Shown: positions 24,401 through 51,889, numbered from the stretch's first letter. The stretch: 64,000 bases of DNA from Proteromonas lacertae (GCA_002245135.1 NGBS01001160.1:620001-684000), one strand, 5' to 3'. Numbers and translations: made by a program. Notes: generated by a model not told the origin, from the letters alone.

Positions 24401-25129
24401 ATGACAAGTAGCAAAGCTAAAATATATAGAGCAATTATTTTATACATATTTTTAATTATATTATTAATATATTCTTTATATAGTAAAAATAAAAATATAA
24501 AAATACAAAATCTTAGATATATAAAGTCAATTCCATCAAATTTAACAACCCGAGATGAAATTGGTAATTTATTAGAAATAGAAAATTTTAAAAATGGAAT
24601 TGAGGTTGGAGTGCAAAATGGAAGTTTTTCAAATATTTTGCTAAGCAAATGGAAATCATGTAAAGAATTTGTTATGATTGATCCTTGGTTGCAGCAAAAA
24701 TATTATGATGATACAGCGAATGTTCCAAATATTATGCAAAACAAAGTATTCTTATATTCAATGAATATGATTAATAAATATTCTGATAGAGTTAAATTCA
24801 TAATTCTTAGAACAACAAGTATAGAAGCTAAAGAATATTTAAAAAATAGATTGTATGATTTCATCTACTTAGATGCAAGACATGATTATATAAGTGTAAA
24901 GAATGATTTATACTATTATTACCCATTAGTAAAATCAGGAGGTATATTATCAGGTCATGATTATCAAGATGGAAATAAAGGTCAATGGAAAAATGATCCA
25001 TACGGTAAACGAATTTATAGTAACAAAGCTGTAAGATCAGCTGTTAATGAATTTGCTCACAAATATAATTTGAATGTAATTACAACTAATGAAACACTAT
25101 TTAAATCATGGTTGATAAGAATACCATAA
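24401..25129 (+). CDS. Class I SAM-dependent methyltransferase (Methyltransf_24-like), type II membrane anchor
   Basis: N-terminal hydrophobic segment; GIEVGVQNG, MIDPW, DFIYLDARHDY, GGILSGHDY. Confidence 0.85.
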   Translation: MTSSKAKIYRAIILYIFLIILLIYSLYSKNKNIKIQNLRYIKSIPSNLTTRDEIGNLLEIENFKNGIEVGVQNGSFSNILLSKWKSCKEFVMIDPWLQQKYYDDTANVPNIMQNKVFLYSMNMINKYSDRVKFIILRTTSIEAKEYLKNRLYDFIYLDARHDYISVKNDLYYYYPLVKSGGILSGHDYQDGNKGQWKNDPYGKRIYSNKAVRSAVNEFAHKYNLNVITTNETLFKSWLIRIP

Positions 25130-25306
25130 ATTATAGTAAATAATTCGATTTTTTAAGAATATCACAAAGTAAATATAAACAATTTAGTACAAACCCTAAA
25201 TTTCTTTTCTTTTACTCTTCTTTCTTACTATGTAAAACACAATAGTAAGAGAGTTAATTATCTGTCGTTTGTCTACCAGACACTTTTAAAACATACTAAA
25301 TTCAAA

Positions 25307-25808
25307 TTGTTACTTCACAAAAGGGAATGTTGGCTGATGCAAAGTTCTTATCCTAATTATTCCAATTTGGTGAGTTTAAGATAGATTTAATCAAAGAAGA
25401 AACAATTTACACCAGCTGTAGCTATAAATGCATCAAAAGATAGTAAAATCAAAATTAGAAACATTGAGATTAGCAAAAACAAAATTAGATCAAGCTGAAT
25501 CATGATTAGCTGAATGAAAAAAAGTACTAGATAAATTACTAGCTGATTTCCAAGATAAAATCAACTAGAAAGGTATGAATTGGATTCGAGCTTTAGAAGC
25601 TAATAATATGCCTGATTATGGTTCTACTACATTATCTCATCCTAAATTCAAAGATCAATTGGAATATGCTATGGAAGAAGGTTAAACTTTGATTATTACT
25701 GGTTTAGAAATCAATAAATCATTTATGTTATATATATTCACCAGATTACCAAATCCATTATTTACACCAGAATTACAGGTAAGAACAACATTAGTTGATT
25801 TCACTGTA
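25307..25808 (+). pseudogene. Collapsed fragments of an axonemal dynein heavy chain (stalk/AAA5 region)
   Basis: Pieces [104 protein letters not shown]. Preceded by a MITE B arm fragment at 25266-25301. Confidence 0.75.
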
Positions 25809-26118
25809 TAATGTATTGATCGTATGCTCGTAAGTTCCTGGTATTGCAGTTCATGTTCTCCATGGGTAACTTGATGTAGAAAGTCTTAAAGTAGACATCA
25901 AAGTTCTTCTGTTCTCTTAAGGCCTTGTTGAGTCCCTTTAGTTTAATCCCGACCAACTGATTAATCGTATAAAGCTTACCGTTCTTGTTTTCTTCACACT
26001 TCAATAAATTCAACTTACTAATGTCTATCATCCTCATGAACTGCTTATACTCCATAATATCTCGATAAGTGTCTTCATTCTGGCAGTTGCAAAGCAAGGA
26101 GTAGGCATTATTCATCAA
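25801..26118 (-). pseudogene. Unknown ORF fragment with the virus-like codon style
   Basis: 105-aa ORF with composition like 17396-24381, abutting the dynein fragment. Confidence 0.35.
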
Positions 26119-27442
26119 AGTATTATATGAAATACAGGAATGATTTACAATCAGTAAGATTTATTGCAATGATATATGTATTTTATTTTCATAAGAAGAG
26201 AAAATATTGTAAAGGAGGATTTATAAAAAAGGATGAAAAAAGAATATACTGCAATTGCAACCAATGTCAAATTTAGTTTTATTAGTAATCTATATATCTT
26301 CTTTATCAAATCCTTTTATATCATATAAAAGATCCAAAGAAATATTATCATGTTTATATTCTTATGCAAATTATTATTACTATTGCATTTCAGTGAATTA
26401 TTTAGAACAATCTAGTTCACTTAATTATACACCTTTTATGCATTATTATTCAATGAATATTTATTTGAAGTAAGATTTTGTGAGTTAATATTTAGAACAT
26501 ATCTAAATATAATTCATTATAATTATATAATAAATTATTAATTACTTTTTGATGAAATTATCATTATTATGTGGATATTTAGTAGTTATGAATGTACTAT
26601 TGGTAATTACCCTAGTTACAAGATGATATTACCATAATCTACATCATTTCTAATGCTATTTCAGGAATGGAAGAGTAATTCAATATTTTCAATAAAAACA
26701 TTTCAATATTTCTAAAGTATACTTCACAAGTTATAAACAAAAATCATATTCAAAAAAATATATTATTGGTTTTGCAACTAATTTCAAATTTTATAGTAAT
26801 TGTTTATTTTATAGTAATTGGAAATTCACATTTTAAGACGATGGAATACTATTATTATTGTGGATAATCATTACTAGATTTTCATCCTAATATATTTTAT
26901 TCAAATAATAAACATAATAAAGATTTGTATTGTATATTAATAAAGAGAAATGTAAGTTATACAGAAATGGTTTTGAAGTATATGGTGAAGTAATCATTTA
27001 ACAGATTATTAATTCAATGAAAAACATTATATATAAACTGATGAAATCATATTTTATATATAACAATAATCGTTAAATTGTTAATCAAAAATATAAAATA
27101 GTATTAATTATGATGACTTTATATAGAAGATATTATGTATTTTCTACATTATTAAATTTCATTCACTACTAGTGATTAAAATACATTAAATGAGATGAAA
27201 TCCTATCTTCCTGAAGAATGTTGAATGATATCAAAGAAAATTGAAGCAATTATTCGACTTTGTAAAGATGTTCAATACAATACTTAATTCAGCAATAGAT
27301 GTCTTCTTCTCAGAAAAGCTAATCATCACTTTGAGATTCTGTAATACATATATGGGACTGTCGCTCAGTATCACAGAGTTCTAACGAATTGGAAATGTAA
27401 TTATAAATCTAACAACATTTCTAATTTTCGATATTTAAAAAT

Positions 27443-30188: not shown

Positions 30189-31151
30189 ATGATTTATTTA
30201 TTTATTATATTATCTATTATTTATCTATATATATTGTTGATAATAAGTAGAACATATCAAACAAAGTTATTATTTTTCATTGCGTCTTATGGTTTAGGTC
30301 AGCTAAATTTTTTGTATATGAAAATTAATTCTTTATTAAATATATGCGAAAGTGGATTTAAAATAAAAATAATTATACATCATACAGACATTTTAAACAA
30401 CTCCAATTTTAATAGTTTTTATTGTTACTATCAGAATAAATATTTAGATATTGTATTTATTAAAATACCAACAGAAATAGGTCACTTTCTTGTAAAAGAA
30501 CATAGAAAGTATATTATTCATAATATAAATGAAATAAATGAATATAATCACATTGCTTTCTTTGAAAATGATATTGATTTCGATTTATCAAATCTTAACT
30601 ATTATTTCAATACACTAGAATTAATTAAACAATTAAGAATTAAAAATGTTAATCCTGGATTTAAAAGATATGAGTTATCAAAATGTCATAATGGAGATGT
30701 ATGGAAAAATTGTCAAGATCATATTAATAATGTTACTTTAATGCTTATAAATAACATACCATTTGTAAGAATAAAAGATGGATATTGCGGTATGTGGATT
30801 ATGCCAAAAGATAAATTGTTGAAATATGTAAATGAAAATGAATTTCTTAATATTCCGACAAATTTACATAAAGGTAATATAGGATTAAAGGAATATTATT
30901 CATACAATTATTGGGAAAAACATTATACTCCACTTATACCTTTATATAGAATTGATGATTGTTTTGTACATCACATGAGTAATAAATACATTCATTATTC
31001 TGGATCAATTCAAATTACAGAGTTTTATAGGCAGATGAATATCTGCAGAACAAAAAATGGAATAAAATATACAGGTAAATTAAAGAACAAAATAATTTAT
31101 ATCAATAGAAGTAGAACTAGCAAAAAATGTATTCAATTAAATAAGTGTTAG
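30189..31151 (+). CDS. Putative GT-A glycosyltransferase, type II membrane protein
   Basis: Signal anchor; FFENDID (DxD-like), PGFKRYE, YCGMWI, HHMSNKY. Family not assignable. Confidence 0.55.
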   Translation: MIYLFIILSIIYLYILLIISRTYQTKLLFFIASYGLGQLNFLYMKINSLLNICESGFKIKIIIHHTDILNNSNFNSFYCYYQNKYLDIVFIKIPTEIGHFLVKEHRKYIIHNINEINEYNHIAFFENDIDFDLSNLNYYFNTLELIKQLRIKNVNPGFKRYELSKCHNGDVWKNCQDHINNVTLMLINNIPFVRIKDGYCGMWIMPKDKLLKYVNENEFLNIPTNLHKGNIGLKEYYSYNYWEKHYTPLIPLYRIDDCFVHHMSNKYIHYSGSIQITEFYRQMNICRTKNGIKYTGKLKNKIIYINRSRTSKKCIQLNKC

Positions 31152-31206
31152 TACACTAATCATCACCTAAATTTAAAGTATCACTTACATAATACTGAAA
31201 GAATGA

Positions 31207-32385
31207 ATGATACAGAGTTGTTATAATTGGATTATAATATTAATAATATTTATAAATACTTTACATTTACATTATTCTTTAGTTAATTATAATTTAATTA
31301 AAGCTTATAACCATTTAGATGATAAGGAAATAGCAAAGAATATATTCTTAGTATCTTTTTACTATGATGACAGATTCAAAGCAATTAGAGTTATATTGTA
31401 TAATCATAATAAAAGTAACAATATAAACAAAATATCGTGTAAAATTATATATAAAAGAATAGAATTTATATGTAATATGAGTTATTATACATCATTATCA
31501 GAAGATAAAACTGTAGCGAATTTATTAATTTTTACTAATTTTTTTCCTTCAAAAATTGTTTTAAATGATTATACAATAAATGCTAGAAAAAGCAAAACAA
31601 TAATTAAAAAGAAAAATAATAAAATAACAGTTTGTATTGGTAAAATGATAAATTTTACTGCATATAATATGCTAATTCAGACAATAGAAGCATATCTATA
31701 CTTTGGTGTAGATCATTTTGTTGTATATAAGTCATCATGTTCTAGAAATGTTAATAAAGTATTAGATTATTACTCAAAAAAAGGAGTATTGGAAGTAATA
31801 AAATGGGCAAATAATTTTGATATTAAATATACAAAGAAAAATACTTATGGTCAAAGAGTCAAATTGAATGATTGTGTATATAGAAATTATTATAAAACTG
31901 AAAGTATAATTATGACTGACTTAGATGAAATATTATGGCCAGATAAAGGGAATAGCATAATTAATATGATTGAAAATATAGAAGAGAAAGAGAAAAGAAA
32001 ATACGATGTATATATATTACAAGAAAAAATATTCAAGAGATATTTTATTCCATATTTTGATAGATATTTTCATTACATAGAGGATTGTAATATCTTTGAT
32101 TATCATACATGTTGTGATTATACATGGAATTGGCCAAAACTATTTATAAGAAATTTATCCAAAATTACATCTGTTAGTATTCATTGGATTACCGGATATA
32201 TAGGCAATTATACAGAAAAGCGAATTAATTCAAATGTAGGGTTTATTAGACACACAAGAAGAACGTATCCTTATATTGTGAGAGGATTGGTTGGTAACTG
32301 GACATATTACAAACCAGATATAAGAGAATTTGTAATTCAAAATAATTCTGAATATATCAAAAATATAGTCTTTTTCTCAAAATGA
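31207..32385 (+). CDS. GT92/DUF23 glycosyltransferase
   Basis: Signal anchor; TVCI, YLYFGVDHFVVY, YGQ...NDCVYR, MTDLDEILWP, PKLFI...VSIH. Confidence 0.85.
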   Translation: MIQSCYNWIIILIIFINTLHLHYSLVNYNLIKAYNHLDDKEIAKNIFLVSFYYDDRFKAIRVILYNHNKSNNINKISCKIIYKRIEFICNMSYYTSLSEDKTVANLLIFTNFFPSKIVLNDYTINARKSKTIIKKKNNKITVCIGKMINFTAYNMLIQTIEAYLYFGVDHFVVYKSSCSRNVNKVLDYYSKKGVLEVIKWANNFDIKYTKKNTYGQRVKLNDCVYRNYYKTESIIMTDLDEILWPDKGNSIINMIENIEEKEKRKYDVYILQEKIFKRYFIPYFDRYFHYIEDCNIFDYHTCCDYTWNWPKLFIRNLSKITSVSIHWITGYIGNYTEKRINSNVGFIRHTRRTYPYIVRGLVGNWTYYKPDIREFVIQNNSEYIKNIVFFSK

Positions 32386-32459
32386 AAGTAGATGATTTGG
32401 TTGCACAATATTAATTAACTATTAATCATAAAGTTTTTTATACATCTCTTTTAGCTCAT

Positions 32460-33230
32460 TTAAATTATATTATGTAATAATAGAAGATTTTTCATTTTTA
32501 ATTTATTTTCACATTTATTCACTATTTTATAATATTTGTTTATGTATAATGGTTTTATTGATAATATATTACATAATATACCAACATATTGATCATCCCT
32601 TATTAAATATGATTTATAAACTCTATGATATAAATTAATTCTTCTAGATGCCAATCTGCTTAAATTAATAAACCACTTGCTAGAAATGATGGCAAATATG
32701 AGTATCGATATATTCTGTATGGCGTATAACAAATTCTATTTTTAGTTCTACAAATTTTTGTTTTATAATATAGATAACCACAATAAGTAGCTTCTTTTTC
32801 ATTATTGTTAATAAATAAGAATAATAATGGTAGGTAAATTACAATATCTATATCTATTTTTATTAAATAGTCATATATCAAATTTTCATTAATCCAATTT
32901 ATTGTATGCAATAATATCACAGTTAAATTAAAATAGTGATTCTTTATACTAAGAAATTATATGTCCACAGAACTATGGATTTCATACTTCACTATAGTTT
33001 TGCTTTATCTTAACCTATTACATAAACATGTAAAACATTTGTTAAACGATAATGTCTATTATTTCTTAGAAATTTTCTCCAATTTATATTGTATGGATTT
33101 GATAATGTAAGAATAATATACTTATAGAACATATTTTTAATCATAGGCGATGATATTATTCGAAGAACATTTATTATTTGATATAAATGAAAGTTTTATA
33201 TAACATTTACAAATGGATATACTTATCATG
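32460..33230 (-). pseudogene. GT31-like galactosyltransferase, frameshifted
   Basis: YDYLIKIDIDIV, YCGYLY, YLPSFLASGLLI|LSR, RDDQYVG spread over ORFs 32660-32920 and 32460-32732. Confidence 0.7.
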
Positions 33231-33275
33231 TATAAAATTATTAAGAAGGATAAATAATATTATTTACAGTAATAC

Positions 33276-34091
33276 ATGTATTTAATTATATTATTGGCAC
33301 TATCAAATGTGTTACTATTTTTTTTATTTATATATAAGAAAAACACAAATATATACAATAATGATCATTGTTATTTGCATATGCAGAAAGAACAAAGAGA
33401 AATAAAGTACCTAGAATTTTCTATAATAGGAAGAAATTCTCCATTTAATAAATATAAAAAAAGTGATGAGTTTACATTATTAAGTTTTACAAGAATAAGA
33501 AATATTAAACATATTATCGATAGTATTATAAAAGAACATGTAAAAGGAGATATTCTTGAAGCAGGTAATTGGAGAGGAGGTAGTATGCTATATGCTAAAG
33601 GAATATTAGAAGCATATCATATTCAACAAAAGCAAATATGGATGTTTGATACTTTTAATGGCTTTCCTAATAATACTGTTATTACTGATAATAAAGAGAG
33701 AAATACATTAATTAAAGGTAGTATAGCTGACAAAATGAGATCAAATTCTTTTGAAAAAGTAAAATCTTTATTTGATATATATAATTTAAGTAATGGAGTA
33801 AATTTTATTGTAGGTGATTTTTTAATTACTATACCTAAAACTGCAATTCCTACTATGTCATATATTAGACTTGATGCAGATAGTTATTTTAACACACTCT
33901 TTTTATTAAATAACTTATATGATAAGCTAAATGATAATGGATATATAGAATTTGATGACTATAAATCTTATCCAGGATGTAAAAGAGCAATTAATGAATT
34001 TCGCAAAATAAGAAAAATTAATCAAAGAATTATATATGTCTATGAAGGATCAAGCAATACAAAATATAATTCTATTTACTGGATTAAATAG
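33276..34091 (+). CDS. TylF/MycF (macrocin-type) sugar O-methyltransferase with membrane anchor
   Basis: GDILEAGNWRGGS, FDTFNG, GDF..T, IRLDADSY, LYDKL..GYIEFDDY. Confidence 0.9.
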   Translation: MYLIILLALSNVLLFFLFIYKKNTNIYNNDHCYLHMQKEQREIKYLEFSIIGRNSPFNKYKKSDEFTLLSFTRIRNIKHIIDSIIKEHVKGDILEAGNWRGGSMLYAKGILEAYHIQQKQIWMFDTFNGFPNNTVITDNKERNTLIKGSIADKMRSNSFEKVKSLFDIYNLSNGVNFIVGDFLITIPKTAIPTMSYIRLDADSYFNTLFLLNNLYDKLNDNGYIEFDDYKSYPGCKRAINEFRKIRKINQRIIYVYEGSSNTKYNSIYWIK

Positions 34092-34104
34092 ATATAAGTT
34101 ACAT

Positions 34105-35673
34105 TTATTCAATTACTTTTCCTCCTACTATTTTTCCATAATTATCATCATCATATTTTTTATTTCCTACCCTGCATGAACAGCCAAATTTTATTTTTTG
34201 ATTGTAACAATTTCTACTTTTAGGTATTCTATGGAATAAACTAATTCCTTCTTTCTGAGCATTGTTCTTTCTGTCCTATTCAAATGTAAATACAATGAAA
34301 ATATAATACCTCACCTAAATTAATTATATCTAAAAGAGTTTTATGAATATCAAATGCTGTTACAAATCTATTTTGATTAATTAATAAATTTTTATAATAT
34401 TTTTTGTGGATATTTTTAAATGACTTTGGGAATATCTATAATGAGATTAAATAAATAATACCATGAATAAAAGTGGAAGAGAATGATCAATCCTTCCAAA
34501 CTATAGAATATAAGCATAATTATACACTACTCTCGTAATATTTTTTATAATGCATTCCATGATCTGCTGTAATAATCATAATACTTTTATTTATTATCCC
34601 ATTATTATGTAAATATTTTAGATAATTAGAAAAATCTTCATCAACTCTAGGAACAGATTTTAATTCAGGATCATGTGAATCCTTCAATATTGTAATTGAA
34701 ATTACTGGTTGTTGAGTAGAGTGATAGTATTTCAATGCATCTTTAAAGTAATTGAAATAATGTTGATGTATTTGTTTATCTCCTAAACATCTAGGATTTC
34801 TGAATAGTTCATATTTATGATAATTAGAATCATATGTAGGATAATTCAAATTGTGATGAGAGCCAGTATATTTATTAATGCCATGAAATGTTTCATTAAT
34901 ATCACATCCTAAATTTGCATTTATTGTAATGTAATTATTCTCTTTATAATCTTCTAAAATGAATTTATGAAAATTCTCATTATTATCAGAATAGTTAGCT
35001 CTAAAACCATAAAATAAAGGCACAAAATTACCCTTTGAATTATGATGAATAGTATGATACTTTAACATATCGAACATAGAATAGTAATTTCTTATAGATT
35101 TTAAATATTCTATTGTTTTAGGTAATTGATGTTTTAAAACAAACCTATATCCACCATCAAACATAATAATATGCACTGATAATTTTGATCTATTTATTAA
35201 TGATGATTTTAAATCATGTGGTATAAATTTCAAATACCATTTAGATTTTCTTTCTGTTGCATTAATGCGTGATGGAATTATTTCAATAATTTCAGAGATT
35301 AAAGCTGTTGTATTTCCTTTCTAATAACAATAATTATATATTATACTTTTAGATGCAATTTATTTTGATAATGAATTTTGTTTATAATTTTATGTTGCTT
35401 AATTATTACATCTAAATTTGTTGTAATTCTATTATAGGAAAATGATAAATAATCAGGCATTTTTGAACAATAATTATATCTTTGTGAAGATATTAAATGA
35501 AAAGTGTTTCTTATATTACACGGTATTTGACATACGTCTTTGCTTGAATCATAATATACATCGCTTAAAAATCCTCCACATAAACTTTCATTTGGAAAAA
35601 TAATAGTATTATCATTTTTGAAATACGAATAGATTATTATACCAAATATAAATAATAATTTTAAAATATACAT
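34105..35673 (-). CDS. DUF229 (alkaline phosphatase/sulfatase-like) membrane-anchored protein, 4 short introns
   Basis: RCLG, HD...VPRVDEDF, ITADHG; spliced exons give LPLLFM/IFP, NQNRFVTAFDIHKTLLDI, GISLFHRIPKSRNC, CSC; stop at 34105-34107. Confidence 0.8.
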
Positions 35674-35708
35674 CTATTTATCAAAACCATATGATATAAA
35701 AATTAGAG

Positions 35709-36557
35709 ATGTTTGATAAAAATCAGAGTTATATAATAATCATATTTATAATATTTATAATATTCATATATCATAATTATCATATTATTAATAGGAAAGG
35801 TGTAATAAAAAAATGTGCAATAAGGAATATAAAGAAAAAAAGTTCAAAATATGTGTGGAATTCTGGTAATTATATAGATTTAGGAGCAAATAGCGGTGAT
35901 TCAGTAATATGGTTTTATAATATTACTATGGATAGAATAAAATATACTGTACCTTATCCTAAGATTTTATTAAATATATCCAAAAATTTTAATACATACA
36001 TCTTTGAAGCAAATCCATTTTTATGTAAACAATTGCTTAAAGTCATAAACTATATCAAAAAGAAAACAAATTTAGTAAATTTTATAGTGTATTGTCCTTT
36101 TATTGTAAGTATTTATGATGGAGTAGATGTATTAAGTATTGATAAAAATGATGTAGCCTCATCAAAATATTATTATTCTAATATCATATATAACCGTTAT
36201 AGAAAAAATATAACTGTACCTGTTATAAATATTACTAAATTTATATCTGAAAATATACCTTATAATGATTTTAATGTAATGAAATTTGATGTTGAAGGAG
36301 AAGAGCATTATATTATACCTGATTTAATAAAAACTAATCAATTATCAAAATTTGATATTCTATATTCAGAGTTTCATAGAAAAAAACTGAATAACCCTCT
36401 TGAAGATAATGCAGCATCTATATACGAATCTTTTCTTAATTACACAAAATTGTATGGAATTGAAACATATGAAGAAGGCAATATTACTAATCTTCAAAGA
36501 AGAAAACATTTAGATCTTTATAAGGAATTATTTTCATGTAAAAATGGATTGTATTAA
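35709..36557 (+). CDS. FkbM-like methyltransferase, type II membrane protein
   Basis: YIDLGANSGDS, FEANP, MKFDVEGEE, YSEFH. Confidence 0.82.
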   Translation: MFDKNQSYIIIIFIIFIIFIYHNYHIINRKGVIKKCAIRNIKKKSSKYVWNSGNYIDLGANSGDSVIWFYNITMDRIKYTVPYPKILLNISKNFNTYIFEANPFLCKQLLKVINYIKKKTNLVNFIVYCPFIVSIYDGVDVLSIDKNDVASSKYYYSNIIYNRYRKNITVPVINITKFISENIPYNDFNVMKFDVEGEEHYIIPDLIKTNQLSKFDILYSEFHRKKLNNPLEDNAASIYESFLNYTKLYGIETYEEGNITNLQRRKHLDLYKELFSCKNGLY

Positions 36558-41500: not shown

Positions 41501-41604
41501 AATTTGTAGTAAACGGAATTATTGTTTATAAAGACGCTAATCATTTGATATTGTCTTTTTCTGATACTTTGACTGATTATCTTAAAAAATGTTTAATAAT
41601 ATAG
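38521..41604 (+). pseudogene. Acyltransferase-3 + SGNH (OafA/OatA-type) O-acetyltransferase, decayed and split by a Tc1/IS630 element
   Basis: IQQFRGISILFIILFH, NGYLSVTIF, HFWYISLEQQ, YEYILG, IGNISYEMYL..YP, LLGNSHLEQW (SGNH block I); after the insertion NDIP...NPLNC and IVYKDANHL (DxxH). Confidence 0.75.
39785..41007 (-). mobile_element. IS630/Tc1-family (approx. DD34E) transposase pseudogene; TIRs not identified
   Basis: PIFVDESH, IFMDNC..H, PYSPHLNPIEMIFGIWK; HTH region ATLRQLQEAI...VSISTVQRTL; stops and frameshifts. Confidence 0.85.
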
Positions 41605-41683
41605 ATCCATGATTTTAAATCTATCACTAAATTAAATAATAATTTAAGTCTATGAATATTGATAATTCATTAATTTTTAAACA

Positions 41684-42530
41684 CTAAAATCCATGCCAAC
41701 ATATATCTTTTACTTTATTGCTTAACATTATTTTAATCTGTTTTCTATGATAATATTTATTGATTTTTTGAAAGTTAATATTTAATTTATTATATATTAT
41801 AGCCATATGCATATCTTCTCTATATAATATTTTTCTTTCTTTCATTAATTCTTTAAACAAGGGAATAATATAATTTGAATTAATAATAACAAACCCACCG
41901 GCAACAAAATTAGGAAATGTACTAAATTTGTACAAAGATTTAGGTAAATATACTGAAGAATTTATATTTCTATTTACCTTCATGCTTGGATAATAGTATC
42001 CGGAAATCATATTCTTATTTATATATAAATAAGAGTACAAATAGATGAGAGGAATATTAGGGAATATATCATCATCTATTTTAATTATAAAATCTGATTT
42101 TAAGTTAAATAATATATAGTATCTGTATATGTTACTTGTTAATATAGTTAAATTATAATAACTATCAATAATGTCTATACCAATAATATTATAATTATTT
42201 TCTTTTTTAATATTTTCATAACATCCTTTAGTGGCTATAACAAAATAATATTTACATGAAACATGTAAGCATGAATTTGCCCATGTTTTCTTTATTATAT
42301 TTCTTTTGTTAATATGCAGAGAAGAAGATACTATAAAAAATATAATTGCAGAAAACGAATTATAATTGGGTGTAATTGAATAATTATAAATAAACAAATA
42401 ATGTAGATTCATTGATACTTTGATTGAATGAGAACATTTGTTTCGTTTATTATTGTATATAAATCTGTTTAATATATAATAAGAAATAAGAAAAAATAAA
42501 AATTTAGAAATAATACCTTCTATATTCTTA
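41684..42530 (-). CDS. GT31-like glycosyltransferase
   Basis: KRNIIKKTW, DSYYNLT, KIDDDIFPN, FPNFVAGG, REDMHM, WHG. The open frame extends upstream of Met 42412 through a hydrophobic anchor. Confidence 0.8.
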
Positions 42531-43569
42531 TAAAGTCATATCTTTTATATATCATAGTTCTAATATATTTTACTGATTTTTGTAATGATTTTAAACAATT
42601 CAAACGATAATAAACGTTATTTACAAGCAATTTAGGGGAAAATATTGTTCTATATATATTATCTAATAGTATAAATGACTTATAAATATCGCTATCCAAT
42701 TCTTTAACATAGCTTCCATATCCCTTCTCAATAAACTCTTTTTGATGAGATATCGGCCATGCTCCCATTGATTTCATTTCTAATAATGAAAGTGCACCTG
42801 TGTCATAGAATGAGAAATAAATAATAAATTTTGATTCATTAGCTAGTGATAATATAGATTCTCTTGAATGATTACCATACTTAATAATTTCAATTCTATA
42901 TTTCTGTTTCAAATATTCTATTAAACTATTTTCTTCATTTCTTTTATTTTTATCAGCATATTTTACATATATTAAAAAATCAATTGGTCTTTCATTATAC
43001 TCATTAATTCTTTTGGTACAATTATTCATTTCAATACAAGGCTTCAAATATAAGTATTTATAATCAAATGAATTACATTTATTGTTCTTCATTATTTGCT
43101 TTTTCACTCTAACAGAATGTAAAGCATATCCAAATATACTTTTCATAATTTCACACCAATGCTTTTCATATGTATTATTTATTGAATTATACCAATTTAA
43201 TGGAGTAACATTTGGACCATATATTATTCTTGAAAATATACCATTATATGATGGATTATTAAACAAATGAATAAAGCTAGCTCTTTGTAACCATACAAAT
43301 GTGTTTTGCATATTTATGATTCTTTTTATAAAATCTATTTTAACTGATTCTTTATAAAACATTTTTGTTGTTTTTGATAGTTTTTTATCTTCATTCCACT
43401 TTATTACTGCTTTATGAATATAAGTTGATAAAGATTTAGGACCTCCTTTACCATTCCTAGGAAATACAAGATAGATGATTATTGTGGTATTGTGGTTGTT
43501 TGTGGTAAATAAATAAACCATAAATATAGTAAATAAAAAATAAGTAATTATTATGTTTACTATTTTCAT
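42520..43569 (-). CDS. Putative GT-B (GT4-like) glycosyltransferase, type II membrane protein
   Basis: Anchor; GKGGP, YGPN, IKYGNH, FSFYDTGALSLLEMKSMG (D/E-x7-E motif). Confidence 0.6.
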   Translation of the reverse strand: MKIVNIIITYFLFTIFMVYLFTTNNHNTTIIIYLVFPRNGKGGPKSLSTYIHKAVIKWNEDKKLSKTTKMFYKESVKIDFIKRIINMQNTFVWLQRASFIHLFNNPSYNGIFSRIIYGPNVTPLNWYNSINNTYEKHWCEIMKSIFGYALHSVRVKKQIMKNNKCNSFDYKYLYLKPCIEMNNCTKRINEYNERPIDFLIYVKYADKNKRNEENSLIEYLKQKYRIEIIKYGNHSRESILSLANESKFIIYFSFYDTGALSLLEMKSMGAWPISHQKEFIEKGYGSYVKELDSDIYKSFILLDNIYRTIFSPKLLVNNVYYRLNCLKSLQKSVKYIRTMIYKRYDFIRI

Positions 43570-43611
43570 TTTAATTTCATATACAATTTTTCTAATTTTT
43601 ATGTGTAATTT

Positions 43612-44637
43612 ATGTTATTATTAAAAAAAAACTTCTTATTATATTTAGTAATTATGATAATAATAATATCATATAATATATGTATTACCTTCATAAACAA
43701 TTTAGTTTTGTCAGATGATATGAAACTTATGAGTGAAATAACTAAAATTAATGCTTGTTGTTTTGATAATATTCCAATAAAATGCAGCAGAAAATATACA
43801 TATATTAATAATAATGTTAAAAGAAAAATTATTAATACAGATAGTACGTTTATTTATTATCATAATAGAACAGCATACAATCATTCTTTTAAAATAGAAA
43901 AGTCAAAAATTCTAATAGCACTTCATTGTCATATATCTTTATTTTATCACAGATATGTATTTAGAAAAATATACAGCTCATATAATAATATACAGCTACT
44001 ATTTTTTATTGGTTTACATAATAATAATACCATCAATAAGCAACTATATAAAGAAATGAAGAAGTATAAAGATATAGTATTATTTAATTTCTATTGTGAT
44101 TATTTTAAATTATGTATGTTAACATATAACTTTCTGATGTGGGTAAAAGATTATCAGTATTTTTATGATATAATAATCAAACAAGATACTGACACTTATT
44201 TAAATATTGAGTTAGTAGAAATAGCAGTAAATAAAATAATGAAGCATAATGTATCATTTGTACTTGGTAAGATATGGAATTTAAATAATAACAAAAAGAA
44301 ATATCCCAGTGGAATGTCATATATATTTTTAGCTAAATCAATAAATCATTTACTTAGTAACATAGATAAAAAACTATATAATATTAAATGTAGCTTTGAA
44401 GAAGATATGCTATTTGGGCTTTTATCAAGAAAAGCAAACTTTTCTTTTTTTGACTGTTTTGAATCTTTTAAATATCCAGCATATAAATATATTCCTAAAG
44501 TCCATTACAATATAAACACTACATTTATGATTCATTCACTCAGAATAGCTGAAATTGCCTTTTTGCACTTCATAAAACAAAAAAACTATATGAACACATC
44601 ATATAAGTTAAATACAACTTGTAGTTTACATAATTAA
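43612..44637 (+). CDS. GT31-like glycosyltransferase
   Basis: LFFIG, EMKKYKDIV, DYFKL, KQDTDTYLN, YPSGMSY, EEDMLFG, IHSL. Confidence 0.82.
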   Translation: MLLLKKNFLLYLVIMIIIISYNICITFINNLVLSDDMKLMSEITKINACCFDNIPIKCSRKYTYINNNVKRKIINTDSTFIYYHNRTAYNHSFKIEKSKILIALHCHISLFYHRYVFRKIYSSYNNIQLLFFIGLHNNNTINKQLYKEMKKYKDIVLFNFYCDYFKLCMLTYNFLMWVKDYQYFYDIIIKQDTDTYLNIELVEIAVNKIMKHNVSFVLGKIWNLNNNKKKYPSGMSYIFLAKSINHLLSNIDKKLYNIKCSFEEDMLFGLLSRKANFSFFDCFESFKYPAYKYIPKVHYNINTTFMIHSLRIAEIAFLHFIKQKNYMNTSYKLNTTCSLHN

Positions 44638-44641
44638 TTGA

Positions 44642-45574
44642 ATGTTTTATAAGAATGTAAACATGTTAATTATTAAGACTTTTATAATTGTGTGTTTAAT
44701 GTGCCTTTTATTTAATTTGTTTAATTATTTATATAATAAAAAGAAAATTAATGATGATCATTCAGATAATGAAGAAGTGGAATATAATTTATTTAATCAC
44801 AATAGAAATACATACACTAAACTAAAATGTAATTTTATAAATATGCAATTTAGATATAAATCATATATTCCTGTTTTTATTTTAACTAAAGATAGGTTAT
44901 ATTCGTTAAAAGTCTTAATGAAAAGTCTATTTTTATTCAAAAAGAAATATAACTTGGATTTGTATGTTTTAGATCATTTTACATCATATGCTCCTACTCA
45001 AAAATATTTACATAATTTAGTAAGGAATAATAAGATAAAGTATATAGAATTAAAAACATTGGATTGGATGAAAATGGCAGATAATGAATTGCCTTATATA
45101 ATTAAAAATATTACTGAAAGTCATTCTTGCAAATACTATATTGTTACTGATCCAGATATGTGTTTATTATATACTCCGCTGGATATATTGGATTATTTTA
45201 TATATATTCTGAATAATTGTAAAGGGGTAGATGTAATAGGTCCATCAATGGTTGTTAGTAATTTGCCAAATTATTACACACTTGTAGATTATCATTTTAA
45301 AGATCAAAATAAAATAGTATCAAAAACACATTATGAAATATTTTGGAAAAATAGATTCTACTCATTGGTAGAAGCTACAGTTGACACAATATTCCAAGTA
45401 AGGAGAAGCAATAATATATTTAAAAGATTTAATGGAAGTATGTTTAGATCACTTCCTCCTTATTCAGTTATGCATTCTGATTGGTATATAAATCCATTAC
45501 ATATACCTAAATCTTTTACTTACTATGTAAATAGAAGCGGAAAAGTGAATCATAGTAAATGGAAGTATTTATAA
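44642..45574 (+). CDS. GT2-like glycosyltransferase
   Basis: Anchor; IPVFILTKDRL, LDHFTSY, YYIVTDPD, ATVDTIF, HSDWY. Confidence 0.7.
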   Translation: MFYKNVNMLIIKTFIIVCLMCLLFNLFNYLYNKKKINDDHSDNEEVEYNLFNHNRNTYTKLKCNFINMQFRYKSYIPVFILTKDRLYSLKVLMKSLFLFKKKYNLDLYVLDHFTSYAPTQKYLHNLVRNNKIKYIELKTLDWMKMADNELPYIIKNITESHSCKYYIVTDPDMCLLYTPLDILDYFIYILNNCKGVDVIGPSMVVSNLPNYYTLVDYHFKDQNKIVSKTHYEIFWKNRFYSLVEATVDTIFQVRRSNNIFKRFNGSMFRSLPPYSVMHSDWYINPLHIPKSFTYYVNRSGKVNHSKWKYL

Positions 45575-45581
45575 AATAATA

Positions 45582-46428
45582 ATGAATATTAAATTATACA
45601 TAATATTGTTTCTTATCATTGTTAGTTATTTATCTTATTTTTTATATTTACCAATTATTATTAAAGCGTGGAAATTATATGGTTATAAATGCATAGTTAT
45701 TATGGTATATCATAATATAAGTAGTGATATTTTATACATAAAAAAAATAATGATAAGTCTAGGAGCTATTGTATATTTGACAAAATTTAACGATACTTGG
45801 ATATTTAATTATCTCACGTGCCAAAGATAATGATCTATTTTATTTGACTGATGCTGATATGATTCCTGTATCAAAGAAATATTTCGATGATTTTGAGTAT
45901 AACATGTTAACAATAAAATCATTTGGTGTAAAAGGATATGGATATGGAAATAATTCAGGAAGATGGGCAATGTGTTATATTGTGGGTAATAAATATATAT
46001 GGAAACAAATACTAAAAGATGATGTAAAAAGTAAAAATTTAGAGCAAATTATTTCAAATATAATTAAAACTCAATTAAAGAAAGGTAAAAAATATTTTGA
46101 AAATTACATATATATTGATGAAGTATATATAAGAGATAAAATAAGAAACTGGCCTAAATTTAATTTTAATGTTGTATATCGTCCAAGAAATTATTTTAAC
46201 ACTAGAATTGACAGATCCAGATGGCCGAATAATATATCTACAATAGATAAAAATAGTCTAATAGATATTCATTTACCTAAATTGCCACTTAATGGAGAAA
46301 AATTAATTTGGTTCTGGAAAAAGCATATAATTCCATTACAAAAATATTTATTTAATGAAATACCATTTGGTATTGATTATATATATAATATAGAAATTAT
46401 TTTCAATCAATCCTACAATAATCTATAA
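45582..46428 (+). pseudogene. Putative glycosyltransferase (DxD), frameshifted near 45810
   Basis: ORFs 45582-45830 and 45844-46428 read as one protein: YFLYLPIIIKAWK...YLTDADMIP...AMCYI...RIDRSRW...DIHLP. Confidence 0.55.
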
Positions 46429-46445
46429 TTATATATAATTATATT

Positions 46446-47336
46446 ATGCGTATTACATTCTTGACATTTTTTATGATATTGTTATTGATGTTATATATAT
46501 ATTATTATGAAGTAAATTATCAACTCTATTTAAAAAAAACCTGTAGTAAAAATAAAATATTAGTTACAGGATCTTCATCAAATCATTTTCATTTACTTAT
46601 TTTGTTTATATACAATATATTTAAATATGAAAAAGACATGTGTTTAATTATTTGGAATTTAGGATTATCATCCCTACAAATTAACAAATTACTTTGTTTT
46701 TTTGCTATATTACATAAAGAGCAGAGAAATATTGATTTAATTTATAATAAATTTAACTACACTGACTATCCTCCTCATGTTAATATTAATAAAAATGTTG
46801 GTGTTTATGCATGGAAATCAATTATAATTTCTTTATCATATAGAAAATATAAAAAACCATTATTATGGCTTGATGCAGGATGTTTGATACGAGGATCGTT
46901 ATTAAGAATTTATAAAGAAATTGAAAAAAATACATTTTATACAATTGGAGCAGGATCAACTATTAAAGGATTTACATATATAAAGACTTTATTATTTTTA
47001 AATGTAAATTCAATTATTAGAAGTAAAACAATGTGTGCGGGAGGAGTTGTTGGATTAAAATATCCTTCTTCAGATGTTATTGATTTGCTAAATAGGTGGG
47101 TTGAATGTTCTTTAAATATAGATTGCATTGCTCCTAAATACTCTAATAGATCTAATCACAGACAAGATCAAAGTGTGTTTTCTATACTGCTTTATCAACA
47201 AAATTCTAATTTTAGCTGTTATAATACAAAATCTTTTAACTTTTCAACTCATTTTGATAGGCACTATTCAAAATATAATAATAGTGATTTTAATTTATAC
47301 ATAAAATTAATTGAAAAATGTATAAATATTTCTTAA
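46446..47336 (+). CDS. DUF1647 family GT-like membrane protein
   Basis: VTGSSSNHF, WNLG, YAWKSIII, WLDAG, CIAP, NHRQDQSVFSIL. Confidence 0.85.
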   Translation: MRITFLTFFMILLLMLYIYYYEVNYQLYLKKTCSKNKILVTGSSSNHFHLLILFIYNIFKYEKDMCLIIWNLGLSSLQINKLLCFFAILHKEQRNIDLIYNKFNYTDYPPHVNINKNVGVYAWKSIIISLSYRKYKKPLLWLDAGCLIRGSLLRIYKEIEKNTFYTIGAGSTIKGFTYIKTLLFLNVNSIIRSKTMCAGGVVGLKYPSSDVIDLLNRWVECSLNIDCIAPKYSNRSNHRQDQSVFSILLYQQNSNFSCYNTKSFNFSTHFDRHYSKYNNSDFNLYIKLIEKCINIS

Positions 47337-48320
47337 TAAATTGATAAACATTTAACATTTTTCCTTTTGCAAGCTAAATTAAAATATGAACTTCTACAAC
47401 TTCCTATTACATTATTACATTCAGAAAGGATATAATTTTCTGCAATTAGTTTAACTACGCATTTATTTATTTTATTACTATTATGCATTGCAAATCTTGC
47501 ATGACATATTTTTCCTTTTATAGTAAAGTTTATAATATTATTCCTATAAACTGATTCTATATATTTCTTAGTTGTAGTAGAATCAGACACTATAAAAATT
47601 TTTGATTTATTATCATTCTTTAATATAGCGTTAATATTTTTAATATATAAATCAATACTACCATTGTTATAGAACCTATTATCGCTTTCTCCGAAGTCTG
47701 ATAAATAACCTGTTCTTATATGTACTCCTATTATGTGGGATATTTTCTTAAATCTATTGAACTGTAAAATATGATTGTTTATTACTGAGGTTGCTATCAA
47801 TAATGTTTGATAAACAAACATTTCTATATTTCTATATTTTTCTTCATTTTGTTTCATTATTTGCTTTATTTTATTTGTTAAATTGTAGAATAATAAAATA
47901 TATGATACATAACTATGATATGTATAAATTCTTATAGGAATTCCATTTCTTAATTCTTTTAATACATTTATATTATTTTTGTTAAAAGTTTTTATATAGC
48001 TGATATTGTAATATTTAAGAAATATAATTTTTGGAATTTGAAAATAGAACATAATTTCGACCCAATTTATTATAAACATTGGATGATAAGACAGTATGGA
48101 TAATAGAATCGTACTTGCTAATGTGGGTATTTTATTGGCAAATCCACATCCTATATAAGGATAAAACAGTATTTTAGAATTATTGTTTTTCTTATTTACT
48201 ACTAGAAAATCATACCACATATCCAATTTAGTATATTTTTTTTTTTTCCATACTGTAATTATTATTAAAAGAATTAAAAGAACATTAAATATTAGAACTA
48301 TTTCAGAAAGTTTATTTATA
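47333..48320 (-). CDS. Fucosyltransferase-like (GT23/GT37/NodZ superfamily)
   Basis: GCGFANKI, IGVHIRTG, IFIVSDS, AENYILSEC, SSYF. The frame is open upstream of 48226 through a hydrophobic anchor. Confidence 0.8.
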
Positions 48321-48362
48321 TCTTATTATAGCAATTAACCAAATAAATCAAATCTCTATAAT

Positions 48363-49388
48363 ATGATATTTTACCTCTTTATTATATATATACTATTTTC
48401 TGTATATCTATTTAATTATATATGTAATTACATCTTTAAATTATTATTTTATAATACATTTCGTAATGAACACCAATTATTCTTTCATGATTTATTAATT
48501 AATTCTAATTTTACATCATTATGTCTATCTAAACATTTGTTTGATATGAGAAAAAGGTCAAAATATAGAAAAATAGGATATGGTGGACATCCTGAAAAAT
48601 ATATTATTTCTTTCCCATTAGATAGAAAAATATTATTATCTCCAAAGCTTATGCGCAATTATGTATATCTTCTTATATTTATACATTGCAGACCAGAAGA
48701 ATTTTATGAAAGATTAATTTCAAGAAAAATTTTATATAAAACAAAATTAGCAATAATAATATATATCACTTTAAAAAGCAATAATTATAAAATTAACAGA
48801 AAATTAGAATATGAAGCTAGTTTGTATAATGATATTGTTCAGTTTAATGAAATGTCATCATATTTTAATTTAAGTATACAGACAGCTCATATGATATCAT
48901 GGTCAATTAATATACGATTTAAGTATTTGTTAAAATCTGATATTGATGTATATGTTAATGTTCCTATAATTTATAACTGGCTAAAATACTATCAAAGCAA
49001 TAATTTGAATTATGCTATTGGTAAAATATCTAAAAGAACATTCATACTTAGAAATAAAAAATACAGTCACTATGTTCCTAAAAATATTATTAAAGATAAT
49101 ATATATCCTCCTTATTTGCAAGGCGTTGGATATATAATTCCTTACAGTACTGTTGTATTATTGAATATATCGATGAAATATGTCAATCCAAAAATTTGGA
49201 TTGAAGATGTTTTTATGGGATATATGTTCAAATATAATAATATATCGCTGATAGATATTTCTGAATATATAATTAGAGATCTTCCATACAATATATGTAC
49301 TACTATTCATAGTTTAAATAAGTATATGTTAATTCATGGATTTTATCCAATTGAAATATATATTATAAAAAAAAACAAAGTGAAGTAA
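48363..49388 (+). CDS. GT31-like glycosyltransferase
   Basis: EASLYNDIV, SYFNL, KSDIDVYVN, YPPYLQGVGY, IEDVFMG, IHG. Confidence 0.85.
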   Translation: MIFYLFIIYILFSVYLFNYICNYIFKLLFYNTFRNEHQLFFHDLLINSNFTSLCLSKHLFDMRKRSKYRKIGYGGHPEKYIISFPLDRKILLSPKLMRNYVYLLIFIHCRPEEFYERLISRKILYKTKLAIIIYITLKSNNYKINRKLEYEASLYNDIVQFNEMSSYFNLSIQTAHMISWSINIRFKYLLKSDIDVYVNVPIIYNWLKYYQSNNLNYAIGKISKRTFILRNKKYSHYVPKNIIKDNIYPPYLQGVGYIIPYSTVVLLNISMKYVNPKIWIEDVFMGYMFKYNNISLIDISEYIIRDLPYNICTTIHSLNKYMLIHGFYPIEIYIIKKNKVK

Positions 49389-49640
49389 CTTTCAAACTAT
49401 AAAATGTTGATATATTATAACAACATATCACATTATACACCTTTCTTATAATTATGTTTATAATTGTTGATATGTTAAAAAGCATTAGATTCACATTTTC
49501 TATATGCTTTCCTAAGTTTAAAAAGAATAAAAGAAATATGTTAAAAAATAAGTTCTATTATTTGAATCATAAAATATTGCATTGTTGGATTGTTTATTTT
49601 TAAAATTCGAATTTATAAAAGCAGATTGTCATAAGAAACT

Positions 49641-50503
49641 TTATTTATAATGATATCTTGCTATTATGTTATCTTTTATTGTATTATTGCAATTAAATTT
49701 TCTAATAATTTCATATCCCATATTATATAGAATTTGAAATAATTTTTCTATATCATATTCTCCTTTTCCATTCCTATTGCCACATGAGGCTTCTATATAT
49801 ATGAATTCACTTTTATGATTATCAAAAAATTGTTTTCCTCCTTCTATTAAATCATATTCAGCTGCTTCTACATCTATTTTAATCATTGATACAGTTGAAG
49901 GTATTAATTTATCAAAATCATCCAATCTTTTTACTAAAATTTCTTCTGAATAATCAGTGTGGTTGTAATATAAAGATGAATAAGACCAATTTTTCTTTGA
50001 TATTTTCATTGTTTGAATTTTTTCTTCCTTTCCTAAACCGTATGGAAATATAGTTATGTATTTAGAAAATTTTGGATTCATAAAAGTTGTTAAACTGAAT
50101 TGAAATAAATTGTTCGGAAGTGGTTCAAATGCATAAACAGTGACATTTTCTTCAGCAAAAACAAATGAGCAAGATCCTATATTAGCTCCAAAATCTATAA
50201 ATATTCCTTCTTTATTGCCAGATGAATATATATCATATATTTCTTGACATTCTAACCATTTACCTTGCTTTTTAATGGCATGGAAATATAATCATTTGAT
50301 CTCAATAACTGATAAAATGAATTAGTTTTATACTTTGCTAAAGCAAAATAGAATATTTGTTCATTTATTATAGTCGGTGGAACTATACAATGGAGTGAAT
50401 TAATGCTTTTATAATTTGTATATTTAAATTCGAAATTAATAAATTTAAATTTGCATAAAAAAAATAAAGCAATTACTACAAAAAATATATAAATGAACAG
50501 CAT
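49641..50503 (-). pseudogene. FkbM methyltransferase with one frameshift (~50280)
   Basis: Anchor + NDYIS | GKWLEC, FIDFGANIGSCS, AFEP, GLG, RLDD, MIKIDVEAAE. Confidence 0.8.
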
Positions 50504-50549
50504 ATGATGTTTATATTTTTTGAATAAATGTATGTATTATTTAACTTAA

Positions 50550-51889
50550 CTAGATTATTATAATTAGCTTATATTTTTTTATTGTTACATCATTTAACAT
50601 ATCCAATTGAATTAATATTTTACTCATTTTTACTTCAGTAGGTACAAGTGGGTGTCTTAGAAACGATTTAATGATTTAAAGCAATTAATTTCTAACTGTC
50701 TATTAAAAAAGATATTGATTCCCTATAACTAACATTCATTGATTTTAAATAATTGATTAGCGTTAGATTACCAAAACTATTCTTCATTCTGTATAGGCAA
50801 TCAGGCATACTACATTGTTGATCAGGCAAAATTAATATAAGATGATGTGCAATGCATGATTTAACTGCATGATGCAATTTTTTAAGTAGCATAATCTTGG
50901 GAAATATTATGTATTTATTGTATAATGATGTATAATATTGATTTTCATCATTATAATATAATAGTCTTTCTTTAAGTGAAAATTCTTTGTCACAATGGAT
51001 TGGATGAACCATACATAGATTTTTTACAATTTTTTCAGGAGGTATACCTACAGTAAACAAAGGTAAAGTATAAAGACCTTTTGTTATATTGCTGAATAAC
51101 CTTAGAGATAAAGATAGTACTTCTTGATCACCTAAATAACTATTTATTCCCATTCTAATATGGCTTTTAATGAATTCTAATCCATATTTCATCATCATGT
51201 ATGTATTTTTTGAAGATTTAATTTTACTACATACAATATTTAGTAATATACGTTATTCCAGAGTTACCATAAGTTTGTTTATTTGGTAATTGACTTTTGA
51301 GTAATACAACATCTTCTTTTCTATTAATCAAATCACTAAGGCAATTATTAATAAACATCACGTCACTATCAATGAATAATATCGAATAGTTATTTTTAAT
51401 AAACATATACATGTAGTAGTATTTTAAAAACCATAATCTTTTTCTAATTGGTAAAGTATTTGCTCTTTTTATAAAATCTGGCCATTTTTGATATAAACAA
51501 TATATATTATATTGTCTACATTTTTGTAGAGTTGTATTAAAAAAGACAATTGTTATAAGACTGCTGATGTTATATGGTATTAAAAAAATTTTATATAGAT
51601 TAATTAAATATTTGAAACTATGATCATCAATCACAGTAAAAAATATAAGTTCATTAATTATGTTTTGTGAATATAAGAATTCAATAACATTATGATAACT
51701 AAAATTATATTTATCAAAAGAGTAAAGGAATGTATTTATCTTACATACATCTTTTACAGGAATAAGTAAACTAACATTAGGATAATCTCTTTTACATGAA
51801 TTAATATAATTAGTATTAAATAAAACCAAAATTAACAACATCATTGAAATATATATAATAATAGTAAATAGAATGATTAGTAATGTCAT
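50550..51889 (-). CDS. GT77 nucleotide-diphospho-sugar transferase
   Basis: WFLKY, ILFIDSDV, NSG, 25-nt GT-AG intron near 51227-51251, GDQEVL, MVH. A possible extra 3' exon (SFLRHPLVP) follows an unusual intron. Confidence 0.75.

Follow-up and report, generated by a model that had tools for sequence, protein, structure and literature searches.

A compact, partly decayed cluster of membrane-anchored glycan-synthesis and methyltransferase genes in AT-rich eukaryotic DNA

The 64,000-nt stretch of DNA analysed in this work (Proteromonas lacertae, GCA_002245135.1, NGBS01001160.1:620001-684000; referred to below as the window) contains between positions 24401 and 51889 (27.5 kb) a cluster of 18 non-transposon loci, genes or relics of genes, nearly all of which encode membrane-anchored glycan enzymes belonging to unrelated families (Table 1). 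Twelve of the loci were assigned by a Pfam match of their own sequence at the curated cut-off, two by their predicted fold or their relatives, two are weakly supported (the GT2-like open reading frame and the split AT3-SGNH gene) and two have no family. The dense grouping of unrelated glycan enzymes proposed in the initial annotation, made from the DNA sequence only, was thus upheld. Glycosyltransferases (GTs) account for about 1-2 % of eukaryotic genes, and the presence of 16 glycan-enzyme neighbours among 18 loci is therefore far from chance.

The assignments come from two Pfam scans and one NCBIfam scan. The first Pfam scan covered 22 open reading frames (ORFs) in the 24-54 kb region and returned 11 glycan-related ORFs at or above the curated cut-off, two transposases (hAT and DDE_3) and one GH38 match outside the stretch, while eight ORFs were left without a family. 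The second, performed on 14 smaller pieces, added the GT31 relic, two exons of DUF229 and the sub-threshold Acyl_transf_3 and SGNH pieces. NCBIfam, applied to 17 ORFs, extended the Pfam results by FkbM alone. In these hidden Markov model searches the previous calls for GT31 (three genes and a relic), GT92, GT77, TylF, FkbM (two genes), Methyltransf_24, DUF229 and DUF1647 all passed Pfam. An ORF of 104 aa (25801-26115) matched no family, is probably not a gene and was omitted from the tally. No RNA genes were found by Rfam and tRNA scans across the 64-kb window.

Table 1. Loci of the glycan-enzyme cluster, in order along the window, followed by other features
Feature	Coordinates	Strand	Evidence or remarks
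Methyltransf_24 class I methyltransferase, anchored	24401..25129	+	Pfam 43.6 bits (cut-off 26.3)
Anchored 320-aa ORF with NDIDFD (DxD-like) motif	30189..31151	+	anchor at residue 1
GT92 glycosyltransferase (galt-1-like), intact	31207..32385	+	Pfam 107.4 bits
GT31 fourth copy, relic in three reading frames	32460..33195	-	Galactosyl_T 33 bits, 32660-32956
TylF-family sugar O-methyltransferase, anchored, intact	33276..34091	+	Pfam 142.8 bits
DUF229 (alkaline-phosphatase superfamily), five exons	34105..35673 (Pfam ORF 34520-35164)	-	collinear Pfam matches in three exons
FkbM methyltransferase 1, anchored	35709..36557	+	Pfam 24.7 bits, TIGR01444 41.2 bits
AT3-SGNH O-acyltransferase gene, interrupted	38540..41604	+	sub-threshold Pfam matches and motifs
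Tc1/mariner transposon, decayed DDE_3 transposase	39486..41139	-	47-nt inverted ends, TA duplication; DDE_3 37.9 bits
GT31a	41684..42535 (Pfam ORF 41684-42412)	-	Pfam 68.4 bits
GT-B fold (GT4-like) glycosyltransferase, intact	42520..43569	-	predicted fold
GT31b, intact	43612..44637	+	Pfam 42.3 bits; start 42 nt from opposite-strand GT-B start
GT2-like anchored ORF with DPD motif	44642..45574	+	begins 4 nt past GT31b stop; no Pfam or PDB match
Anchored ORF with DADM motif, frameshifted between anchor and catalytic part	45582..46428	+	translation
DUF1647 protein, intact	46446..47336	+	Pfam 26.0 bits (cut-off 25.7)
NodZ-like (GT23-type) fucosyltransferase homologue	47333..48322	-	evidence from relatives
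GT31c, intact	48363..49388	+	Pfam 78.2 bits
FkbM methyltransferase 2, frameshifted after anchor exon	49641..50503 (Pfam ORF 49641-50081)	-	Pfam 39.6 bits, TIGR01444 70.8 bits
GT77 (Nucleotid_trans), two exons	50692..51889 (Pfam ORF 51227-51889)	-	Pfam 25.7 bits (cut-off 22)
DNA-PKcs gene	1843-13906	-	Pfam N-terminal, CC1-2, CC3, CC5, FAT and kinase domains
Inverted repeat, 614 nt	14758-15371 / 16792-17405		arms 99 % complementary, 1420 nt apart
MITE-like repeat family, ~300 nt	15547-15846, 19491-20125, 52684-53294, 53907-54206		61-95 % identity, direct and inverted copies
ORF block, 31-41 % GC	17200-24400		at least seven ORFs (100-355 aa), no Pfam family
Paralogous ORF pair of this block	20074-20922, 21030-21719	-	
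hAT-family transposase gene	27798-29626	-	
GH38 alpha-mannosidase, N-terminal fragment	53348-53845	-	103.7 bits
DDE_3 fragment	54471-54821		
hAT-family transposase gene	55584-57080	+	DUF659 domain, open 498-aa frame

All four GT31 loci score above the family cut-off of 23 bits (the relic with 33.0 bits) and possess the DxD motif, read in their translations as DDD, DTD, DID and DID. The three GT31 ORFs are pairwise 27-30 % identical or not matched by BLAST at all, so the cluster is not a recent tandem array, in agreement with the initial annotation. No GT-AG intron connects the C-terminal pieces of the relic. GT31a encodes its anchor-like segment ahead of the first ATG (42412), with no earlier ATG available, and its open frame overlaps the end of the adjoining GT-B gene by 16 nt. 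Nine relatives of the GT92 protein were found: eight, on short contigs, show 32-70 % identity and the ninth is a lamprey galt-1-like protein (27 %). The two exons of GT77 have a sole in-frame join, a 25-nt GT-AG intron (51251-51227).

The intact gene next to GT31a gave no sequence-family match for the window protein itself, and 5 of its 31 relatives weakly match Glycos_transf_1. An exhaustive search produced 60 related clusters. The AlphaFold2 (AF2) model calculated from a 31-row alignment had a predicted local distance difference test score (pLDDT) of 93.4. Foldseek matched this model to 380 PDB entries at E<=0.001, and GT-B enzymes of GT4 type account for all the top matches (1e-8 to 1e-6). 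By its predicted structure 42520-43569 is a gene for a GT-B, GT4-type glycosyltransferase whose family has no model in Pfam, and the earlier GT-B call stands on this fold.

The fucosyltransferase call gained support from the relatives of the ORF rather than from the ORF itself. Of 14 relatives 13, the closest coming from short contigs, show 46-56 % identity, and in the 15-row alignment HIRTGYLSDFGE, the SDS and the C-terminal motifs are invariant, as is HIRTG..D, which presumably corresponds to the HxRxxD-type fucosyltransferase motif. Pfam NodZ was matched by 13 of the 15 aligned rows (best 6.8e-7) but not by the window's own ORF. The family profile searched against the PDB found NodZ (2hhc) as its best, weak, match at E 0.014; apart from this, PDB sequence searches with the four Pfam-less ORFs yielded nothing useful. 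As in GT31a, the anchor is encoded upstream of the first ATG and no earlier ATG is present, which could mean that in both genes the start codon was lost, that translation begins at a codon other than ATG or that an exon further upstream was missed.

For the GT2-like ORF, 27 of the 30 nearest clusters in the Atlas, a language-model resource, are GT2 (score 0.96), the nearest clusters being mostly viral or bacterial. Neither Pfam nor the PDB gave a match, and its assignment is treated here as a lead only. The two DxD proteins previously left unassigned do have anchors and DxD-like motifs, but no family was found for either. For 30189-31151 no Pfam, NCBIfam or PDB sequence match was obtained, and its single-sequence fold (pLDDT 37) was unusable. 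For 45582-46428 no family was matched, and the sole GT-AG join between its frames would be an atypical one of 70 nt.

Four of the loci encode methyltransferases of three families. For the TylF protein, the profile of its relatives matched NovP (2.3e-39) and MycF (1.6e-38) in the PDB, and the translation contains LDADSY. Its closest relatives, at 53-61 % identity, lie on short contigs. The Methyltransf_24 product has a hydrophobic segment from residue 8, and its gene is an outlier located 5 kb before the first dense block. No GT-AG intron connects the two frames of FkbM 2. The DUF229 gene is divided by four GT-AG introns of 26, 25, 26 and 34 nt; each junction has one in-frame GT-AG intron, with two alternatives at the last junction. 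The acetyltransferase of the initial annotation is recognizable as AT3-SGNH by the motifs RGISILF..LFH and LLLGNSH and by matches to Acyl_transf_3 and SGNH that score 21.1 and 18.3 bits, below the respective cut-offs of 31 and 27. The gene is interrupted by the Tc1/mariner element, inserted in frame and bounded by inverted repeats that are 96 % complementary, as well as by further frame breaks; the locus is a relic and not a working member in the present sequence.

The hydropathy scan was carried out on 20 products, 16 from the cluster and four transposable-element or exon pieces. A hydropathy window detected an N-terminal anchor in 11 of the 16 cluster products and three more were recognized by eye. 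The genes occupy both strands and are packed tightly. In 41684-51889 ten genes cover 94.6 % of 10,206 nt, and in 30189-36557 seven loci cover 96.0 % of 6,369 nt. Four same-strand genes are separated by spacers of 4, 7 and 17 nt and two convergent genes overlap by 4 nt. In the divergent pairs the start codons are 35 nt (FkbM 1 and the opposite-strand DUF229 gene) and 42 nt apart. The GC content of the cluster genes (20-26 %) is the same as that of the host, and the transposase ORFs reach 28-34 %.

The host signature was read from the DNA-PKcs gene at the beginning of the window. The best PDB match of its kinase part is human DNA-PKcs. At each of its nine frame junctions a GT-AG candidate intron of 32-45 nt was found, mostly of the form GTAT..ATAG, and introns this short make a useful marker of the host lineage. 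The GC content of the window varies between 21 and 30 %, about 22 % overall, with the exception of a block at ~16-24 kb (31-41 %). The standard genetic code is used, with 11 TAA, 6 TAG and 1 TGA stops in 18 ORFs, and no telomere repeats occur in the 64 kb. Among animals, only myxozoans and Dicyema are reported to have introns of such length (PMC13644364), and a dicyemid host was rejected since the GC content of Dicyema, 36.7 %, is above that of the window (PMC6736024). Tiny introns are found in ciliates too. A rotifer host, to which the Atlas pointed, was rejected as unsupported because no named rotifer relatives appeared and rotifer introns are longer. A litostome-like ciliate is the leading candidate for the host, at somewhat less than even probability and weakened by the GT-B tree described below, and a myxozoan or other animal is distinctly less probable.

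Damage or a missing start codon affects six of the 18 members: the GT31 relic, 45582-46428, FkbM 2, AT3-SGNH, the NodZ-like gene and GT31a. The coexistence of intact and decayed members noted in the initial annotation was thereby confirmed. Since introns can account for every one of the nine DNA-PKcs junctions, the frame breaks in the cluster are more likely real than errors of assembly. The introns of DUF229 and GT77 mean that part of the apparent decay is splicing and that both genes are processed like host genes; accordingly, the description of the cluster as mostly intronless holds in part but not for these two. Turnover by frameshift and transposon insertion marks the locus as fast-evolving.

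The initial annotation had gone on to propose a mobile cassette, which implies a foreign origin, and this was not supported. For the NodZ-like, TylF and GT-B families, the three that were tested, no relative on a viral contig was confirmed, and the single bacterial match of TylF shows 30 % identity. Virus hallmark families were absent from the window in the Pfam scans. Copies of one ~300-nt repeat family lie on both sides of the cluster, but this family has at least five copies in the window; no target-site duplication or integrase indicative of a cassette was found, and hAT and Tc1 have inserted in the ordinary way. The host-type introns, the anchors, the host-like GC content and the lack of viral relatives in these three families argue that the cluster genes are resident eukaryotic genes and not a recently acquired cassette; they look like resident host genes, and evidence of mobility was not found. 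The likeness to a capsule locus failed as well, since no genes for a flippase, polymerase, priming transferase, export or sugar-nucleotide synthesis were recovered from the 22 and 14 sequences searched in Pfam or from the 17 searched in NCBIfam.

Linkage recurs among the relatives of the GT-B gene. An 11-row alignment of the family, used to scan metagenomes, identified 54 loci of 1.0-4.5 kb and 19-28 % GC. At least 31 of the 54 terminate in (CCCCAAT)n or the complementary repeat, and 8 of these do so at both ends. A preprint describes (CCCCAAT)n as the telomere of rumen ciliates, and isotrichid rumen ciliates as having multi-gene chromosomes (bioRxiv 10.1101/2022.01.05.474053). The presence of GT-B relatives on telomere-capped nanochromosomes of gut ciliates beside other glycan enzymes is newly seen in this work. 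A second ORF of at least 90 aa is present in 10 of the 54 loci, which reduce to 8 independent ones as L017 equals L051 and L037 equals L038. A glycan-enzyme gene is the neighbour in 7 of these 8, a count that has no control of random multi-gene nanochromosomes alongside. The neighbours are GT2 (L009, 110 bits; L002, 21.9 bits and below the cut-off; L050, a homologue of the L002 ORF), GT92 (L006), GT8 with a GT8 paralogue (L048), GT4 with GH45 or FkbM (L017/L051) and PIG-L (L037/L038); the one non-glycan locus has an LRR neighbour (L018). L002 (1-2761; a GT2-like and a GT-B gene) and L048 (1-4493; GT8, its paralogue and GT-B) are complete gut-ciliate nanochromosomes capped at both ends that carry glycosyltransferase genes only. 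The divergent start codons in L048 are 11 nt apart, resembling the spacing in the window. Because genes on one tiny chromosome share their copy number, such nanochromosomes are a natural test of linkage, and the recurrence of glycan-enzyme neighbours on them supports linkage that is selected.

Clusters of this kind have been described. Paschinger et al. 2023 (PMC7614267) present the Caenorhabditis elegans glycoclusters C13A2.1-12, K06H6.1-6 and T15D6.1-12, in which several GT families are mixed with putative methyltransferases, transporters, DUF268, DUF273 and DUF1647, and report a similar temporal expression of some members. The window cluster likewise consists of adjacent anchored genes with a mixed GT, methyltransferase and DUF1647 membership, and in both cases genes for single-pass Golgi-type proteins of different GT families lie side by side and some families are repeated. 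The view that such clustering is unusual for eukaryotic Golgi genes was therefore overstated. The window cluster differs from the nematode ones in being far tighter (95 % coding, overlapping ends, 4-42-nt spacers), in belonging to an AT-rich host of another lineage and in adding TylF, the NodZ-like gene, GT77, the unnamed GT-B family and the AT3-SGNH relic, with no transporter genes seen. It is a cluster of the C. elegans kind, more compact, from another lineage and with another mix of families, and neither a capsule locus nor a viral cluster.

Bacterial capsule and O-antigen loci place unrelated glycosyltransferases next to methyl- and acetyltransferases and undergo turnover. The window resembles them in carrying such a set on a short stretch with turnover, but, beyond the genes already listed as absent, it uses both strands, contains introns and encodes lumenal anchored products. 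Rhizobial NodZ and NoeI act in succession, the first fucosylating the Nod factor and the second 2-O-methylating the fucose; here a NodZ-type gene lies ~1.3 kb from an FkbM gene (FkbM 2), though the window versions are eukaryotic, membrane-anchored and both imperfect, one startless and one frameshifted. The foreign gene islands reportedly described by Gladyshev and co-workers in bdelloid rotifers in 2008 are said to share with the window signal-anchored glycan-tailoring enzymes in a transposon-rich eukaryotic region, whereas the window has no sign of foreign origin or telomere-repeat litter, and its introns are shorter than those of rotifers. Giant-virus glycosylation clusters, as two papers portray them (PMC9614988, PMC10117803), are AT-rich, compact sets of glycosyltransferases and sugar-modifying enzymes and, like the window, occur inside or beside eukaryotes; the window differs in its host-type introns and in lacking hallmark genes and, for the three families tested, viral relatives. 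A literature search for glycogene clusters in protists found none described, the matches listed comprising giant-virus and C. elegans papers only. Nor did the literature on myxozoan glycosyltransferases, trans-splicing, Golgi methyltransferase clusters or multi-gene nanochromosomes, as searched, contain anything relevant to the cluster.

We favour, with somewhat less than even confidence, the reading that the stretch is a functionally linked cluster of host genes for building and methylating Golgi glycans, under rapid turnover. Within the Golgi lumen its products likely act stepwise, all on a single class of glycan that is either displayed at the surface or secreted. Judging from the families elsewhere, the GT31, GT92, GT77, GT-B and GT2-like enzymes would extend a chain containing galactose or hexosamine, to which the NodZ-like enzyme would add fucose. 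TylF, the two FkbM proteins and Methyltransf_24 would O-methylate sugar hydroxyls with S-adenosylmethionine imported to the lumen, and the AT3-SGNH enzyme, broken here, would O-acetylate. From the closeness of the divergent starts and the shortness of the same-strand gaps we predict that the genes are clustered for the sake of common regulation or common gene dosage. A bolder version of this, which we regard as unlikely, takes the cluster for a eukaryotic counterpart of bacterial polysaccharide loci, a glycan module that would be held together by selection for shared dosage and shared bidirectional control, appear in gut ciliates as gene-sized chromosomes with GT genes only and include the Golgi enzymes that O-methylate eukaryotic glycans.

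Several observations weigh against a functionally linked cluster. As one third of the members (6 of 18) are damaged or startless, the locus may not form one working pathway, and four GT31 and two FkbM copies speak of redundancy rather than of an ordered pathway. Two loci, 30189-31151 and 45582-46428, are without a family in the scans, and no sugar-nucleotide or S-adenosylmethionine transporter was seen in the window by Pfam. On the ciliate side, the nanochromosome neighbours are not close homologues of the window genes, one weak FkbM match apart; in tblastn of the window against the nanochromosome loci the GT-B gene alone was matched. A rapid tree of 47 sequences of at least 280 aa, for which the careful search stayed incomplete, pairs the window GT-B with its relative P0030 outside the clade holding all 15 telomere-capped rows.

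Much of this would also be expected of a birth-and-death 'nursery', a transposon-rich, fast-evolving region in which Golgi-enzyme genes accumulate, duplicate and decay without a common pathway or regulation; local duplication and relaxed constraint would then have produced the clustering incidentally. We rate it as the main rival, less probable than a functionally linked cluster. The damaged members, the repeated GT31 and FkbM genes and the hAT, Tc1/mariner and miniature inverted-repeat transposable element (MITE)-like sequences within and around the stretch fit it, and the C. elegans authors leave the same possibility open (PMC7614267). At least 12 unrelated families cannot come from local duplication, the GT31 copies are too divergent, and the glycan-enzyme neighbours in the independent nanochromosome loci argue that linkage is kept. 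The window might alternatively be a contig of a ciliate germline (micronuclear) genome, its genes being neighbours only there and residing on separate small somatic chromosomes after excision of the transposons, which would leave the soma with a complete copy of the AT3-SGNH gene that looks 'broken' here. The in-frame Tc1/mariner with its TA duplication, like the eliminated sequences of ciliates, the relatives of one cluster gene on ciliate nanochromosomes, the tiny GTA..TAG introns, standard code and ~22 % GC, and the absence of telomere repeats from the 64 kb agree with such an origin. It appears decidedly unlikely, given that the tree sets the window gene apart from the capped clade, that the Atlas pointed to Rotifera and not to a ciliate as the host and that gaps of 4-17 nt are too small for separate chromosome ends, and it is in any case also compatible with a functionally linked host cluster.

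Very improbable, in our estimate, is a horizontally acquired or mobile island from a bacterium or giant virus that specifies a capsule-like polymer. Bacteria are the best-known source of TylF, FkbM, NodZ and AT3-SGNH, the PDB matches of the NodZ-like and TylF profiles are bacterial enzymes, the genes are tightly spaced, one repeat family occurs on both sides (15.5-20.1 kb and 52.7-54.2 kb) and most of the Atlas clusters nearest to the GT2-like ORF come from viruses or bacteria. These points are outweighed by the spliceosomal introns of host type in two members, the Golgi-typical N-terminal anchors, the eukaryote-type families GT31, GT92, GT77, DUF229 and DUF1647, a GC content equal to that of the host, the absence of viral relatives in all three families tested with a single distant bacterial match of TylF, and the distribution of genes on both strands with no integrase, flippase, polymerase or priming transferase in the scans.

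The fucose-modifying methyltransferase of C. elegans is still to be found according to Paschinger et al. (PMC7614267). For the enzymes that O-methylate eukaryotic glycans the window offers concrete candidates for expression and assay: four anchored methyltransferases of three families, one of them close to solved sugar O-methyltransferases, with glycosyltransferases and a gene resembling fucosyltransferases as neighbours. Functional linkage would mean that pathway-like clusters for glycan synthesis can exist in eukaryotes; if the genes are not so linked, the locus is one more fast-evolving glycogene neighbourhood of the kind already noted in a nematode.

Other features of the window were recorded as well. 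Besides the Tc1/mariner element, two hAT-family transposase genes and a further DDE_3 fragment are present. The MITE-like repeats number at least five copies in the window and lie on both sides of the cluster. The GH38 fragment is situated between copies of this repeat, the remainder of the gene was not seen, and it may be another glycan-gene relic beside the cluster. The GC-richer block that precedes the cluster, with its paralogous pair of ORFs, possibly represents a mobile or foreign element of a type not yet classified. The mimivirus-type promoter motif AAAATTGA occurs only 8 times in the 64 kb. The long, nearly perfect inverted repeat is located upstream of the DNA-PKcs start.

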